The position numbers and the translations under genes are program-made. Under the pieces are notes generated by a model that was not told the DNA's origin, ran no database searches, and saw only the letters and a program-made list of their open reading frames with translations. This document shows positions 3,190-10,114 of a DNA stretch of 64,000 nt, one piece after another; position 1 is the stretch's first letter, and each line of letters begins with the position of its first letter. The DNA lies in NCBI GenBank assembly GCA_963804995.1, contig CAWDSK010000003.1:1376001-1440000 (forward strand), read 5' to 3'. Source of the DNA: an uncultured Acidobacteriota bacterium. GTDB taxonomy: Bacteria; Acidobacteriota; Terriglobia; UBA7540.

Positions 3190-3281
3190 GGCAGGCTGGC
3201 GCAGAGCGAACGCAGATGTGCGATTCTGGTGCGATTAGATGACGTAAAACTCAGAACTGCGCTCTGATGCGCCAGCCCGCC
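3190..3281. repeat. Long imperfect hairpin repeat (REP-like), intact copy; target family of the adjacent IS110
   Basis: Arms ggcaggctggcgca / tgcgccagcccgcc; second copy at ~3463-3541 + 6379-6390 is split by the IS. Confidence 0.75.
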
Positions 3282-3646
3282 TAAGAGACCCCTCATCCGC
3301 TTCGTGCCTCAGCACCTTCTCCCCCTGGGAGAAGGTTGGTAATCAAACCGCCCTCTCCGCGGGGTCGCAGAATCCGCCGTGGCGGGAGAGGGTGTCCCGA
3401 CAAGTCGGGACGCGTGAGGGGTCACTTCGCCAGGCCCTGCGAAAGGGCCGTGGATGAATTAGGCCCGCTGGCGCAGGGTGAGCCCAGCCCTACGATTCTG
3501 GTGCGTTTAGATGACGTGAATCGCAGAGCTGCGCTCTGATGTTATGAAAGCGGCGATGCCTCCTCGGGTGCCGCTAAACTGGAGGTGGTCCAGTTTAGCG
3601 GGCCCTCGGGTTCAGACCGAGAGTTTTGCATCGAGGAGACAAAGCG

Positions 3647-4747
3647 ATGAAGAAGAGTATAACGCCCATTGGAACGCCGGTGGGAGTGGATGTTCACAAG
3701 CGTCGTTGCCAGGTGGTGGAGCTTGATCACGGAGAGATTAAGGCACGGAAGTCGATCGCCAACACGCGGGAGGAGTGGCTGGAGATGTTGACGGAACTTC
3801 CTCCCGACGCCGAGATCGGCCTGGAGGTGAGCACGGCAGGCTACTTTGCCATGAGCGTGCTGGAAGAGGCGGGGTGGCGAGGGCGCGCGCACTGGGTGCA
3901 CACGGCGGGGATCGACAGCAACCGCCGGCAGAAGAATGATCGTTTAGATGCCGAGCGGCTGGCGCGCAAGCTCGCCGCGCACCATCTGGATCCACTGCCG
4001 GAGGCGTGGTTTCCGCCGCCGGAGATTCGCGCCCTGCGTCTGCGCGCACGCCAGCGCTGCTGGTTGGCCCTGCTGCGCACCAAAGCCAAGAATCACCTGC
4101 AAAGCTTGCTGGGGATGCATGGCTTGCAGGCGCCGGGGACCGACCCGTTCGGAGCGGCCGGGGAGAAGTGGCTGGCGGAACAGACCTTGCCGATGCCCTT
4201 GGGCGAAAGCATCCCTCAGATCCAACGCCTGCTGCAGTTCCTGGAGGAGGAGATCGAAATCAGTGAGAAGTACTTGCAGGCGGTGGACGGACAATTCCCC
4301 GAGTTGGCGCTGCTGCGCACAATCCCCAGCATCGGCCCCATCCTGTCCCCGGTGATTTGGAGTGAGATCGGCACGATCGAGCGGTTTCGTTCCGCCAAGG
4401 CCTTGGCCAACGCTACGGGGCTCGTCTCCAGCTTTTACGACAGCGGGGAAGTGAAGGTGTCGGGTCCCATCACCCGCCAGGGATCGCGCTGGCTGCGCTG
4501 GGCCTTCGTCACCGCCGCCCATGTCGCGATTCCATACCCCAATCCTTTCGCGCGGCGCTACCACCGCCTGCGCCGCAGCAAGAAACCCAACGTGGCCAAG
4601 GCCGCCATCGCGCACTCCTTGGCGCGTTGTGCGTATGGAGTTTTGAAGCACGGCTGCCCTTATCGGGAAGACCGTTGGGGCCGCCAAGTCGGCGTACTGG
4701 AGCAGGAAGCCCGTGCTGGCGCTAGGTACACCAAGACCGCGCTCTGA
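3647..4747 (+). CDS. IS110 family transposase/recombinase (DEDD RuvC + Tnp domain)
   Basis: GVDVH, GLEVS, KNDRLDA (D-E-D-D), LRTIPSIGP, GLVSSFYDSG (catalytic Ser), ITRQGSRWLRW; GAGGAG RBS before ATG 3647. Confidence 0.95.
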   Translation: MKKSITPIGTPVGVDVHKRRCQVVELDHGEIKARKSIANTREEWLEMLTELPPDAEIGLEVSTAGYFAMSVLEEAGWRGRAHWVHTAGIDSNRRQKNDRLDAERLARKLAAHHLDPLPEAWFPPPEIRALRLRARQRCWLALLRTKAKNHLQSLLGMHGLQAPGTDPFGAAGEKWLAEQTLPMPLGESIPQIQRLLQFLEEEIEISEKYLQAVDGQFPELALLRTIPSIGPILSPVIWSEIGTIERFRSAKALANATGLVSSFYDSGEVKVSGPITRQGSRWLRWAFVTAAHVAIPYPNPFARRYHRLRRSKKPNVAKAAIAHSLARCAYGVLKHGCPYREDRWGRQVGVLEQEARAGARYTKTAL

Positions 4748-4761
4748 TAGGGACCTGCTCC
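4699..4761 (+). ncRNA. Putative bridge/seek RNA target-binding loop
   Basis: Stem ggagcagg (4699-4706) / cctgctcc (4754-4761) encloses gctggcgc (4715-4722) and gcgctctgat (4739-4748), which match opposite strands of the insertion site. Confidence 0.7.
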
Positions 4762-4796
4762 CGAACAACCTCATGGGGACCAGGACAACCTGGCTA

Positions 4797-5898
4797 TTGA
4801 TTCCTGCATAATAAATGTCCTATACTCCGGCTGGGAGGTGAGTCATGCGCCCAGCCGGAACTCCAGCGGAACTCGAGCGACGGCGTTTGCGAGCTGTCGA
4901 ATTGTTGGCTCAAGGTCATCCCCCCGTGGAAGTAGCGCGGATGGTCGGCGTGGATCGGCGCAGCGTGCGTCGATGGAAAGCGGCCTTCCGAAAGAAAGGG
5001 CGCCCGGCGCTGGAGGCGCGGCCCGCTTGCGGGCGTCCACCCAAATTGTCCGCGTCCTTGACCCGCCGATTGGAGCGCGCGTTGTTGCGCGGAGCGCAGG
5101 CGGCCGGATTTCCCACCGACCTGTGGACCTGCCCGCGCGTCGCGCAGTTGATCGCGCAACGTTTCCGTATCCGTTATCACGTGGACCATATTGGTCGATT
5201 GCTCCATGCGCTGGGTTGGAGTCCGCAAAAGCCCGCCCGGCGGGCCGTCGAGCGGGATGAGGAGGCCATCCGGGCTGGGTCAAGCAAACTTGGCCGGCCC
5301 TTAAAAAAAAGCCCACCGGCTGAACGCCTGGCTGATTTTCCTCGACGAATGCGGCTTTCTCATGGCGCCGCTGGTTCGCCGCAGTTGGCAGCCCCGTGGC
5401 CGGACACCGGTGTTGGTCCAGCGCGGGCGACATCTGCAAAAGGTATCGGCCATTGCCGCCTTGGCCGTGTCTCCCCGCCGCGACCGCGTGCGACTTTACT
5501 TTCGCCTGCATCCCCAGGCCGACATCAGCAGCGACCAAGTCATCGGTTTCCTCCGCTATCTGCACCAGGAATTGCGGGGGCCCTGCCTGCTGGTTTGGGA
5601 CCGTCTCAATGCCCACCGCGCTAAACGCACCACGCAATTCGTCGCCCGCCTTCCGTCACCTGCATACCTTCTTCTTGCCCGCCTATGCCCCCGAACTCAA
5701 TCCCGTCGAGTACGCCTGGGGCTATCTGAAAATGAACCCCCTCGCGAACCGACCGACATTCGAAACTGCGGAATTGGCTGCCCTGGCCCGCCGACACACC
5801 CGGGCGCTGCAGCGCAACCAATCGTTGCTTCGTTCCTTCCTCCGGCACAGCCCACTTTTTTTGCGCCTCACATAGGACATTATTTATGCAGGAATCAA
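4797..5898 (+). mobile_element. IS630 family insertion sequence
   Basis: TIRs ttgattcctgcataataaatgtccta / taggacattatttatgcaggaatcaa; TA duplication at 4795-4796 and 5899-5900. Confidence 0.95.
4845..5875 (+). CDS. IS630 transposase (split over several frames; A8G slippery site at 5303-5311)
   Basis: HTH region (RRSVRRW...GRPPKL...LWT), FLDECGF, VWDRLNAH, YAPELNPVEYAW; extra frameshifts near 5270 and 5655. Confidence 0.9.
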
Positions 5899-6459
5899 TA
5901 GCCCGTAGAGATGAAAGGGACCGAACCGACTCGGCAAACTCGCATGGCAAGAGCAAGAACCCAACGCCCACGGGGCCGTGCTTCATCCCCGGCAGGCGGC
6001 GGGGAGCCAACCCTCCCCGCCCCCCGGGCTCTACATAAAGGAGGAACGACTATAACTTGGAATAATTCTATAAGATAATACGTACAGAATGGCAGCCGAC
6101 GGCGAAGTCGGCAACCCGCCACTTTGCCGATGGGGTCCGGCGCGTTTTTCAGGCATGGGGAAGCTGTGCCCAGAGCTTGGGAGGGGGGCGACCGCAGGCC
6201 GCCCCGGCATCGTTTCCATCAGCCTCCGACCGGCTATTCCTCAGCGGGTTGCTCGCCAGCAGAGCCCGCCTCCGCTTCACCGGCTGCAGGCCATTCTGAA
6301 GTCGAAGGGGGAAGTTTGTCAAAGGCGATTAAGAAATTCAAAAAATCGGCTTGACACGGCATCGCGGTTTCAGAGATGCGCCAGCCCGCCGCAGGTCAGC
6401 GCTCGCTCATGGGACGTGCAGGCGATTGATTTCAGGGGCTTCCGCGTTTGCCTCGAAAC

Positions 6460-7899
6460 TCACTGTCTATGGGATTGGCCGCCGTGCTGGCGCAGCAACT
6501 CCGCCACGGCCGTCCGGCCAAATCTCACAGCTACGTCCAATGGTGTGGCACCTTGCGTCGTCTCGGCATTGACATTAGCACCGTGGGCCAGCAGCAATTC
6601 CGCGAAGGCCTTTTCGCCGCCGAACGCTGCTTCGTGCAAGGCCGTCATGCCGGTGTCGGAGGTCGCATTGACATCGGCGTTGCTGGCAAGCAGCAGTTCC
6701 GCCACGTCCGTGTTGAAATTCTGCACCGCTATGTACAAGGGTGTATCGCCTCGGAGGCCCCTCTTATTGACATCTGCCTTGTACTCCACTAGCAGCTCCG
6801 CCACGTCTATCATATGGTGCAACTCCGCGGCCTCGGACAGGGGCGTTTCGCGCATGACGTTGTCGGCATTGACATCGGCCTTGGCAGCGAGTAGCAGTTC
6901 CACCACGCCCGCGCGGCCGCTGTGTGCCACCGCCCAGAGCAACGGTGTGCTGCGGGCGTTGTCCTGGGCGTTGACATTGGCCTTGCTGGCGAGCAGCAGT
7001 TCCACCATGTTCCTATCACCGTTGTACGCTGCTATGTGCAGAGGAGTCTGGCCGGATTCGTCTCTGCCGAAGACCAGATCAGGTTTCCTCTTGAGCAGCA
7101 ACCTGAGGGTTTCCAAGTCACCAGCGTCGGCCGTCTCGTGCACTTCGCTGACTCGGTTCGCCCGAACCCCCGCTCCTCCGACGATTTGGATGCCGTTGTT
7201 ACCACCCATGGCGGCCAGCGTGTCTCCGTCATGCAGTGGGTGATCCAGGTGTACTACCTGCCCCCCGAGAACGGGGACTGTGCTCTCCTTGGCAACCGGT
7301 CGAGAGGCTTGAGGCCCGGCCGCAACGTCATGGGAGGCTTTTTGCGCGGCGAGCACGGCCGCCGTCTTCTGGTCGAGCTTACCAGTAACGGGCAAGCCGC
7401 GGTCCGATTGAAACTTCCTTAGAGCTGCCATCGTTCTTGATCCCATCGCTCCGTCAGCTAATCCAGGCGCGTAGCCAAGAGCCTGGAGCTGTTGCTGTGC
7501 TTCCTGCACAGCCTCCTTCGTGCCGCGAGAGCCGACGTTCGAGTAACCGCCGTGCTCGCGCAGGATTTCCATCACGTCCTTGCGACCCTCAGCCGAAGCC
7601 CAATGCAGCGGCGTCCACTCGGCACTGTCCTTGGCATTAACATCGGCATTGCTGGCCAGTAGCAATTCCATTATGTCCTTGTGACCCCTAGCCGACGCCC
7701 AGTGCAGGGCCGTCATGCCGTCGCTATCTTTGCTGAAAACCAAATCAGGGTTTTCCTTGAGCAACGCCTTGACTTTGACCAAGTTGTCATTCCTCGCAGC
7801 GTCGTGAATCTCGCCGCCCAAACCGAGGCCGCTGCATGCCAGCGCGACCAGGATGACGGCGATGAGGCGGATGGTCGGGAAGCAAATGAGGCGATGCAT
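6460..7899 (-). CDS. Secreted ankyrin-repeat protein with central peptidoglycan-binding domain
   Basis: Signal peptide; repeated TPLH/ADVNA ankyrin units; QQQLQALGY...DGAMGSRTMAALRKFQSDRGLPVTGKLD (PG_binding_1); GGAGG RBS. Confidence 0.9.
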   Translation of the reverse strand: MHRLICFPTIRLIAVILVALACSGLGLGGEIHDAARNDNLVKVKALLKENPDLVFSKDSDGMTALHWASARGHKDIMELLLASNADVNAKDSAEWTPLHWASAEGRKDVMEILREHGGYSNVGSRGTKEAVQEAQQQLQALGYAPGLADGAMGSRTMAALRKFQSDRGLPVTGKLDQKTAAVLAAQKASHDVAAGPQASRPVAKESTVPVLGGQVVHLDHPLHDGDTLAAMGGNNGIQIVGGAGVRANRVSEVHETADAGDLETLRLLLKRKPDLVFGRDESGQTPLHIAAYNGDRNMVELLLASKANVNAQDNARSTPLLWAVAHSGRAGVVELLLAAKADVNADNVMRETPLSEAAELHHMIDVAELLVEYKADVNKRGLRGDTPLYIAVQNFNTDVAELLLASNADVNATSDTGMTALHEAAFGGEKAFAELLLAHGANVNAETTQGATPLDVAVRFGRTAVAELLRQHGGQSHRQ

Positions 7900-8099
7900 A
7901 TTCGTGACTCCTCCCTTCTCCGGATCAATATATCCGAATCCGGCGAGGCATGCCACGGGATCAGCCACCCGGCAGGAGTTTCGGAATCCATAAGGGGGAA
8001 GGGGCTCGACGATGGCTCGGAGCGCATTCGAGGGCGAGCCGCGTCGGCAGGCTCTTTGCTCTTCGCCGGCCAAGCCCGATCATGATGCGTGACGTTTAG

Positions 8100-10114
8100 C
8101 CGAACTTTCGCACTTCAGGGTGTTGAGTTGGGTTAACTCGCTTCTTTTCAGTACAGGCATTGCCAAGGTCTGGCCTACAAACGCAGCATTCCAGCAGGAA
8201 AGATTTCCGGCTGGACCGTGATCCTGGGCGGTGGCTGAGTGGGGAGCACGAGCTGCAGTTCGTGCAACAGGAGCTTTTGTTCGGGTGTCGGCTCGGTGTA
8301 GCGGGGCATCACTAATCGGCGCCCATCCGTGGTCGGGAAAGACACATCGAGCATCTGCATGCCCGCCAGCTTCTCCAGCACCGCTTTCGGCGTCAGGCCC
8401 GGAGCGTGGGCCTGCAGACGCTGTTTCAGCGTCACCCACAAGCCGTACGCCAGAAAGGCAATGAGGATGTGGGCCTCAACGCGATGTTCTATTTGATGAT
8501 AAATCGGCCGAATTCCCAGCTCACTCTTCAAACACTTAAAGGCCGCTTCGATCTGCGCCAGTTGCATGTAGCGGTCCCACAACACCTCGGGATTTTCCCC
8601 CGTCAGATTGGTGCGCAACAGATAATGTCCATCGCGCCGCTCCGCTTCCTCCAACTTGCTGCGCTCGAGCCGGAACTGGAAGGTCTGGCGAGTCACTTCT
8701 TCCTGGGCCTTGGGCACGCTGATCTTCACGAAACCGAAGGCCCGTCCGGCTTCACTCTTGGCTGCTCCGATCTTCATCAGCAACGCATCACGCGTCGGAC
8801 ACACGCGCCGCAAGGCCCGCAGCCTCCACAACAGCCGTGCCAGCTTGCGTCGACGGATGGCCATCTCTTTCGCCTGGCGGCCTGCGCTCTTCGCCAGCAC
8901 ATACAACTCGCCTTCCTCCGCGAACAGTTTCACCTCTACCGACTCGCGCACCTTCCGCCACGGCAGTTCCGTCCACTTCGCTTCGTACTGCCGGATCTTG
9001 CCCCGTGGCGTCCCCACCAGGTAAAACATCTCCCGCCCCGGGGTGCGCATCTCCGCCAGCAGTTCTTCACTGGGAACTCCCCGATCCATCATCCACACCC
9101 GCCGTGCCTTGCCGTACACGCTCTCGATCTTGTCCAGAAAACCGCGCAAGCTGTTCCGGTCGGAAGTATTCCCCTCCATCACTTCGTAGGCCAGCGGGAA
9201 ACCTTCCGGCGTCAGCACCAGGGCGATCACCACCTGCCGACAGTCGAACCGCCCGTCCCGGCTGTAACCGTGGCGGGCTTTGGGAATCGCTTCCGCCTCT
9301 CCTTCCACATAGGTGCTGGTGAGATCGTAGAGGAGCAGATCAAAGCGCGCCGCAAAGAGGTCTTGCCACCGCAGCCGCAGGTGCTGGAACAACTCCGCCT
9401 TGTGCGCCAGTATTCGATCCAGACAACGATAGAGCCGGTCCTTCTCGGCCACCGCGAAGTTCACTGCCAGCAACTCGGCCATGGCGGTCTGATCGAACCA
9501 GTGCCGATGCACACGGAATTCGCTGCCCGGCTCGATCAACCGGTTCACCACCAGCAGCCGTAGCACCTTCTCCCACGGAACTCCCTCGCGCCCTTCCGGC
9601 AACCTCGCCTGCCAGAACTCGTCCAGCTTCAACTGGCGCCACAGCTCGCAGCCCAACCAACAGCCACCGAAGGTGCGCGGCCGCTCAACGCGCATTTCAC
9701 TCAACTTCACTTGTACGCCGTCCACAGCATCCGCAGGAAGTTCGCGGTCCTCCGGGAAGAGGCTCAGGGACGCGAGGACGCGACGGTCCTCGTCAAAAAC
9801 CTCCAGCGTCTTGCGCCACGCGGATTGTTGGCTGTCGTTGATTTCGCCCAGATACAGCACCGTCCGATGCACGACCTTCGAGCGCGACACGCGCCGACTC
9901 TCGACGATGCTGAAATAACGATGTTCCTTGCCGTCCTTTTTGCGTCGATGAATCTTCAGGTGCACGCCCCAGAATGCCAGACCTTCGCGCCCCAGAAAAG
10001 AGGGTAGGTCGGGCCTACAAGCACTCTTCAACCCGCGCCCATTGAAGGCAAAGACCTTGTGCACCGCAAGCTGCCAAAATCAGCCCGGTAGCGGGTGGAA
10101 GTGCGAAAGGCAGG
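8100..10114 (-). mobile_element. IS1634 family insertion sequence
   Basis: Imperfect TIRs ccgaactttcgcacttc / gaagtgcgaaaggcagg (14/17); TTAG on both flanks (8096-8099, 10115-10118). Confidence 0.85.
8175..9965 (-). CDS. IS1634 family DDE transposase
   Basis: LYDLTSTYVEG, GYSRDGR, MMDRG, IEAAFKCLKSELGIRPIYHQIEHRVEAHI; GTG start at 9965. Confidence 0.93.
   Translation of the reverse strand: MHLKIHRRKKDGKEHRYFSIVESRRVSRSKVVHRTVLYLGEINDSQQSAWRKTLEVFDEDRRVLASLSLFPEDRELPADAVDGVQVKLSEMRVERPRTFGGCWLGCELWRQLKLDEFWQARLPEGREGVPWEKVLRLLVVNRLIEPGSEFRVHRHWFDQTAMAELLAVNFAVAEKDRLYRCLDRILAHKAELFQHLRLRWQDLFAARFDLLLYDLTSTYVEGEAEAIPKARHGYSRDGRFDCRQVVIALVLTPEGFPLAYEVMEGNTSDRNSLRGFLDKIESVYGKARRVWMMDRGVPSEELLAEMRTPGREMFYLVGTPRGKIRQYEAKWTELPWRKVRESVEVKLFAEEGELYVLAKSAGRQAKEMAIRRRKLARLLWRLRALRRVCPTRDALLMKIGAAKSEAGRAFGFVKISVPKAQEEVTRQTFQFRLERSKLEEAERRDGHYLLRTNLTGENPEVLWDRYMQLAQIEAAFKCLKSELGIRPIYHQIEHRVEAHILIAFLAYGLWVTLKQRLQAHAPGLTPKAVLEKLAGMQMLDVSFPTTDGRRLVMPRYTEPTPEQKLLLHELQLVLPTQPPPRITVQPEIFPAGMLRL

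Follow-up and report, generated by a model that had tools for sequence, protein, structure and literature searches.

Engineering of bridge recombinases for genome editing is under way, and characterized systems of the IS1111 type are few. In the available parts of the published accounts, the closest described systems are the IS1111 elements ISEc11, ISPa11, and ISKpn4, which use seekRNAs and which, like the element described here, have long subterminal inverted repeats, a long non-coding region 3' of the gene, and a top-strand guide that comes first (PMC11187229; 10.1101/2024.04.26.591405). ISPa11 likewise targets REP repeats, natural reprogramming as seen here is reported for ISEc11/ISXne4 (PMC11187229), and the combination of a short left end with a long right end is given as an IS1111 feature (PMC11187229; PMC11208160). 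The same accounts also mark differences: their seekRNAs start after the stop codon (74–227 bases in ISEc11 and 39–210 in ISPa11), whereas here both guides lie inside the reading frame, and their inverted repeats are spaced by 10 or 9 bases, against 12 in the present element if its core is TG. IS621, as far as its descriptions extend (PMC11208160; PMC11208158; PMC13626964), shares the DEDD recombinase fold, target and donor loops, a 2-base core, a REP target, and a handshake dinucleotide AU set against donor AT. However, its RNA lies upstream of the gene and its core is CT, whereas here the RNA overlaps the gene end and the core is probably TG; the guides stand in the opposite order here, each loop here carries an internal hairpin, and IS621 excision is reported to restore the target, whereas the +ATG sites described below suggest inexact loss.

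A guide RNA overlapping the 3' end of its own gene is known from the TnpB omega-RNA of IS200/IS605 elements, where the overlapped protein tail is disordered and dispensable, a precedent for the design (the relevant parts of PMC10097598). TnpB is an unrelated nuclease, however, and its overlap consists of scaffold (-231 to -10), whereas here programmable guides are translated. In the portion of the CazIS110-1 report that could be consulted, an RNA with only the target loop is dominant, which bears on the copy described here with its interrupted donor loop; CazIS110-1 was tested in vitro and in vivo and shows copy-out without a rejoined target, whereas the present element is known from sequence alone (10.1101/2025.10.25.684509). 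Within the open literature searched, as far as its content was available (including 10.1101/2025.05.14.653916, 10.64898/2026.08.14.744561, and 10.64898/2026.03.19.712850), neither guides inside a recombinase frame nor fixed three-base scars were found; the bridge-RNA table of PMC11208160 may hold such overlaps, and subscription papers lay outside the search. IS1111 seekRNAs and bridge RNAs are known, and the variant presented here is a guide loop inside the last codons of the recombinase gene.

Element Architecture and Recombinase

The window (the whole stretch of 64,000 nucleotides analyzed) holds one of four genomic copies of the element, one of which is frameshifted; a paralogue, 58% identical in its recombinase protein, is also present in four copies. 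Coordinates are those of the window and refer to the + strand unless marked (-). Element ends were set by alignment of the genomic copies, all of which show the same order: left target, TG, ATGTTA, inverted repeat, then the element body, inverted repeat, GAGA, TG, and right target. In the window, sequence and copy alignment place the left part of the interrupted host repeat (5' arm and left target) at 3467–3538, ending in the core TG at 3537–3538. The left end occupies 3539–3646, with a subterminal inverted repeat at 3545–3560, 6 bases off the core; GATGT adjoins the repeat in all 79 distinct left junctions. At the right end (6351–6376; sequence and homologues), a -35-like TTGACA (6351–6356) precedes the right subterminal inverted repeat (6358–6372) and GAGA, and copy alignment places the second core TG and the right target at 6377–6385. 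A TTGACA-like word lies 19–20 bases upstream of the core in 65 of 66 records. The subterminal repeats (an IS1111 feature, about 11–17 bp) vary in a compensatory manner, TGAAAC/GTTTCA becoming TAGAAC/GTTCTA in L098 and L100. Another IS1111 feature, the long 3' non-coding region, is also present, the left non-coding end having 108 bases and the right about 520 once a nested IS630 insertion is discounted.

That insertion, an IS630-family element at 4797–5898 flanked by a TA duplication (4795–4796/5899–5900), was recognized by homology and copy comparison, is single-copy in the genome, is confined to the window copy among the copies of the element, and starts 36 bases past the target-binding loop, which is intact. 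It splits the putative donor-binding loop, so the window copy would be unable to produce full-length RNA in cis. The IS630 coding region (4845–5875) is divided between two frames around an A run near 5300, with a possible further break near 5660. Division across two frames at an A run is expected of programmed frameshifting, an IS630 family trait.

The reading frame at 3647–4747 encodes an IS110-family DEDD recombinase of 366 residues (Pfam PF01548 and PF02371; NCBIfam NF033542, the recombinase model, at 190 bits against a cut-off of 140). The RuvC-like DEDD domain and the Tnp domain with catalytic serine that define IS110 are both present, and D15, E60, D98, D101, and S266 (the DEDD residues and the catalytic serine) are invariant or nearly so across homologues. 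The predicted recombinase fold matches IS621 and ISCro4 with an E-value of 3e-16 (structures 8WT9, 8WT6, and 9T56). The family consensus contains a GL-P----SG motif in which the window protein has S instead of P. The best-ranked plasmid relatives of the recombinase are about 32–33% identical, those that are annotated being labeled only 'IS110 family', and no relative was found in viral contigs.

Several features of the surroundings were recorded in passing. One segment of some 60 bases near the right terminus (6229–6290), about 95% identical between the two paralogues, shows very high contig depth in three of four sequencing runs and the highest bin in the fourth; it is probably common to many elements, matches nothing in Rfam, and folds no better than shuffled sequence. 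Right ends of L001 and L055 carry a short tandem duplication of the right inverted repeat and GAGATG ahead of the target flank, which would be a slippage product or an assembly artefact, and in L024 and L030, which belong to a three-copy element, about 15 extra bases interrupt the left inverted repeat. The element is located about 75 bases beyond the stop of a gene (6460–8073, -) for a secreted-looking ankyrin-repeat protein with a peptidoglycan-binding-like segment, whose NCBIfam matches are all below cut-off. An IS1634-family transposase is encoded at 8175–10064 (-), in a region rich in insertion sequences.

The Target-Binding Loop

The segment at 4699–4761 is, judged by the structure and covariation of its homologues, the target-binding loop of an IS1111-type (IS110 family) bridge/seekRNA of a mostly known kind. 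It is closed by a stem of GGAGCAGG (4699–4706) with CCTGCTCC (4754–4761), continued by an inner stem of CCC (4710–4712) with GGG (4750–4752), and contains an internal GGT..ACC hairpin at 4725–4738. The first guide, GCTGGCGC, occupies 4715–4722. The second, at 4741–4748, consists of four variable bases for the left target, the core TG, and an AT that may be a handshake guide; it is part of the word GCGCTCTGAT (4739–4748), in which six bases, counted from 4739, match the left target here. An in-frame stop TGA (4745–4747) lies within the second guide and is followed by a second in-frame stop, TAG. Stems, hairpin, both guide words, and the stop codon are positioned as the earlier note on this sequence had described, and 16 codons (residues 351–366) fall on the loop. 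Both words occurred together in 6 of 100,000 shuffles of the 63 bases of the loop, so that their presence exceeds chance expectation.

Folding of the single sequence was not significant against shuffles (z of -0.40 and -1.46), and an Rfam search with an intact copy found no family with an E-value of 1 or below. RNAalifold, applied to 68 homologues, independently recovered the three stems, in which 10 of 14 pairs show changes on both sides. Stem cells were paired in 96.2% of cases, a value reached by none of 500 shuffles, and 88 cells were changed on both sides, compared with 23 for shuffled and no more than 13 for slid controls.

Covariation of Guides and Targets

Related loci were drawn from species genomes, metagenomes, and genus genomes. 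Protein matches at 133 loci gave 99 distinct records, in 86 of which the loop was found by pattern; the 13 records outside the counts comprise six that end before the loop, one rearranged within it, four with a hairpin variant and TGAT, and two with a changed TGAT. The first guide matched the right flank at 8/8 positions in 50 and at 7/8 in nine of 65 records (59/65 at 7/8 or better), where matching allowed two registers one base apart, in the controls likewise, with manual correction of two right flanks whose end is duplicated. For the second guide, whose variable part has four bases, agreement with the left flank was 4/4 in 48 and 3/4 in 16 of 71 records. When records were collapsed to 11 first-guide and 16 second-guide classes, mean matches were 7.16 and 3.33, whereas permuted class pairings gave 4.48 and 1.64, and the observed means were reached by none of 20,000 permutations. 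Permutation at the level of elements likewise gave 0 of 5,000 reaching the observed guide–target match, counts that overstate independence since the homologues are related.

On the tree, the first guide of the window element recurs in two distant clades, while five different first guides occur inside one clade, and the paralogue in the same genome has another repeat as its target and correspondingly different guides on the same scaffold. Right of the insertion point the first guide pairs with the top strand, and left of it the second pairs with the bottom strand, the order of top before bottom strand being that published for IS1111 in the available part of PMC11187229. Two registers are in use for the first guide (4715–4723 in the window), guides ending in CA covering both core bases (40 records) and those ending in GC only the second (19 records); the junction is unchanged between them, a point against the model given below.

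The proposal that this is the programmable target-binding loop was made from the window sequence alone, and the covariation of both segments with flanking targets that it called for is present across homologues: those with other targets carry other guides, and do not keep the two segments unchanged. The proposal had itself raised the possibility that the segment derives from the host hairpin repeat by degeneration, since both words are present there; such a decayed copy would have been trapped at the gene end. However, the scaffold is kept with compensatory changes while both words vary with unrelated targets, a single scaffold bearing 11 first guides that track different repeats; guide–target covariation rules out the decayed repeat, to which we assign practically no probability. 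As read from these comparisons, related elements have had their guides re-aimed many times in nature.

A Putative Donor-Binding Loop

A donor-binding loop is suggested by homologue loops, in which AGAGATG is near-invariant and a 9-base segment is partly complementary to the left end, donor ends themselves barely varying. Its putative first guide lies at 4765–4773 and is complementary to the left end and core at 7 of 9 positions (column counts, 63 distinct loops); positions 6–7 are mostly mismatched in either register. The putative second guide, AGAGATGA (5907–5914), beyond the IS630 insertion, matches the right end, the core, and one left-end base. RNAalifold predicted no consensus helix in the donor-loop region. 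Contig depth in an RNA run was 86–172 over both loops and 0–42 over the rest of the gene, and was set aside as evidence since contig depth cannot rank parts of a gene.

Core Dinucleotide and Circle Junction

The earlier note had reconstructed a target with a GATG core. That core is probably wrong, as empty host repeats mostly lack the extra ATG, and the reconstructed target is doubtful, its sole exact empty copy in the genome being a repeat in the window itself, at 3259–3276, 272 bases upstream of the element. In this genome, 66 plain copies of the target of this element stand against seven with the extra ATG (+ATG), and 97 plain copies of the paralogue's target against two; across 29 genus genomes the corresponding counts are 455 versus 21 and 563 versus 28. 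A plain target copy lies near 15 of 53 insertions and a +ATG copy near none. A TG core with a plain target is the likely reading. If the core is TG, the AT that follows the second guide lies opposite the first two bases of the donor, and by analogy looks like the handshake guide of IS621, which in its target loop is AU, with AT in the donor at those positions (parts of PMC13626964 and PMC11208158).

Against the TG core, the circle that it implies has inverted repeats 12 bases apart, whereas the short circle has exactly 6+3. As far as PMC11187229 is available, terminal extensions of IS1111 elements beyond the repeats are 7+3 or 6+3 bases; here, 6+3 is obtained only with the +ATG form as target, and a plain-repeat target gives 12 bases in all. 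The same loop could be read in the register of the earlier note, with the rare +ATG repeat as true target and 9 bases between the inverted repeats of the circle, and the two models yield an identical inserted state. Besides agreeing with the 6+3 rule, a +ATG target is matched slightly further by both guides than the plain form is, most clearly in the paralogue, and empty +ATG sites do exist (7 and 2 matches in this genome). It would, however, require a separate +ATG variant in each of the targeted repeat families, whereas plain copies exceed +ATG copies about 20 to 1, a third target class in this genome has nine plain copies and no +ATG copy, partner arms near insertions are plain (the 15 versus 0 of 53 above), and the AT is near-constant while targets vary, as expected of a donor-facing handshake. 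We consider the +ATG target unlikely and retain the plain repeat with a TG core. Of 63 distinct loops, 34 have a last base of the putative first donor-loop guide that fits the long circle and seven have one that fits the short circle, so that the donor loop leans weakly toward a TG core.

The circle-junction pattern was found in none of 162 loci and none of 133 family genomes. Seventeen junction-pattern matches in viral contigs were dismissed as chance, being without inverted repeats. Four sequencing runs compared at 80% likeness (contigs of relatives) gave no end-to-start joint among the matches listed, and a search of sequencing runs returned none that contained half of the stretch. Circles seldom survive in loci, genomes, viral contigs, or runs of this type.

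Repeats Carrying an Additional ATG

The window repeat mentioned above (3195–3276) is an empty host palindromic (REP-like) repeat whose 5' arm, at 3195, has the plain form and whose 3' arm (3259–3276) carries the extra ATG at the insertion point; repeat comparison makes it a candidate scar. In one repeat family, ATG accounts for 13 of 14 three-base inserts at the insertion point (27 inserts of 1–8 bases overall), and in the other for 18 of 27 (40 inserts overall), with ATA providing three more. Most of the 28 second-family +ATG sites are embedded in a repeat, often alongside a plain partner arm, and their surroundings vary; two pairs of +ATG sites are common to genomes by descent. Judged by this comparison, the +ATG repeats, found in two unrelated repeat families, are not random indels. 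Because the same three bases occur in two unrelated repeats, at the exact insertion point, and equal the start of the left end, the rare +ATG repeats are probably scars of element loss, with a crossover at the shared GATG. Their maker would be either host slippage or the recombinase; that the recombinase of this lineage itself excises in a second register, shifted by three bases, and so is not scarless but writes ATG into host repeats, is possible, though we would not expect it. No scar site was occupied by an element in another locus among the loci collected. A larger '+AGATG' insert was seen once and was absent from later genus searches.

At locus L018 (G000:C3:1259723-1259739), a +ATG repeat of the window-element type precedes a paralogue copy by about 80 bases, and the right end of that copy is followed by a plain repeat; the two repeat families and both elements thus cluster.

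Overlap Between the Loop and the Reading Frame

The overlap had been expected to make retargeting alter both the protein tail and the stop codon. The tail does change with the guides (AGARYTKTAL, GSHRSTKTVP, RSARSTKTAV, and DCARSIKTVL), and the stop does not: it lies on TGAT, which 90 of 92 complete loops keep, and the other two have a TAG one codon further on. The stop is conserved because it falls on the RNA core, within this near-constant word. Nor is the implied restraint of the overlap on retargeting seen in guide changes per tree length, the clade that reads through both guides (26 of 71 tree rows) having seven first-guide and 13 second-guide changes over a length of 1.82, and the clade that stops before the guides 6 and 8 over 3.36, in a sampling that favors close relatives.

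Tail classes were assigned from tail residues in the best 120 of 564 homologous proteins. Of these 120, 26 run to the core TGA; 50 and 2 reach the hairpin, each group in its own frame; 11 end within the first guide; 26 end ahead of the guides; and five are fragments or unclear. In all, 89 of the 120 read into the guide region, in three different frames. A C-terminal motif, PEVAIGH and its variants, is present in 50 of the same 120 (P0042–P0118) and appears, by its sequence, to come from translation of the commonest RNA guide in another frame; motifs of this type could mislead protein-motif analyses.

The overlap could be supposed to have a function, in that the tail, or the ribosome translating it, couples recombinase synthesis to RNA processing or restrains retargeting. 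The stop is kept on the core TGA in 22 of the 26 read-through rows, most of the 120 best-ranked proteins enter the guide region, as counted above, and the predicted model has a helix at residues 348–359. The stop, however, is explained by the RNA core, three frames and several stop positions are in use, and short tails are frequent among the protein clusters (one such cluster, P0119, has 105 members). Codon positions show no sign of selection on the protein either: among 19 intact rows, the non-synonymous share of codon differences is 0.79 in the tail and 0.39 upstream, with no third-position excess. In TnpB, moreover, the overlapped tail is disordered and dispensable, according to the part of PMC10097598 cited above, and pLDDT is below 50 at residues 349–366 of the predicted model here. 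A functional overlap seems very unlikely to us. The tail is best read, from sequence and model, as translated RNA scaffold, a passive and dispensable read-through, and the overlap appears to carry no constraint. With a passive tail, RNA function sets the sequence and retargeting is free.

Proposed Mechanism

Taken as a whole, the locus is likely an IS1111-type bridge recombinase element aimed at a palindromic host repeat, with an RNA that begins in the 3' end of the gene, a TG core, a passive tail, and +ATG scars. The guide RNA would start within the 3' end of the recombinase gene and, if IS621 is a guide, would be cut from the mRNA's own transcript, probably under a promoter that the circle junction creates, and bind the recombinase, its second loop reading the joined element ends. 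Exchange would occur at the 2-base TG core, a plain repeat recombining with a circle whose inverted repeats are 12 bases apart. Once strands are exchanged, the constant AT that follows the second guide would grip the donor as a handshake guide, while the protein tail over the loop would be passive read-through. Loss of the element by crossover at the 4-base GATG common to both junctions would then leave the +ATG scars.

Implications

Beyond the known kind, the features of note are the retargeting series, the unusual end spacing, and the probable scars. The clade offers a natural retargeting panel with a probable TG core, in which 11 variants of the first guide and 16 of the second come with matched flanks. 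It indicates that a programmable loop can sit inside coding sequence; pipelines restricted to non-coding ends would miss or truncate such a loop, and recoding of the recombinase gene would destroy it. If the recombinase itself writes the scars, +ATG would be a legible trace of earlier insertions, genus-wide and in at least two repeat families, and translated guides would make retargeting legible from protein sequence alone. The +ATG repeats also allow a test of a standing question: does excision of IS110/IS1111 elements leave a clean site, and at which bases do the elements truly end?
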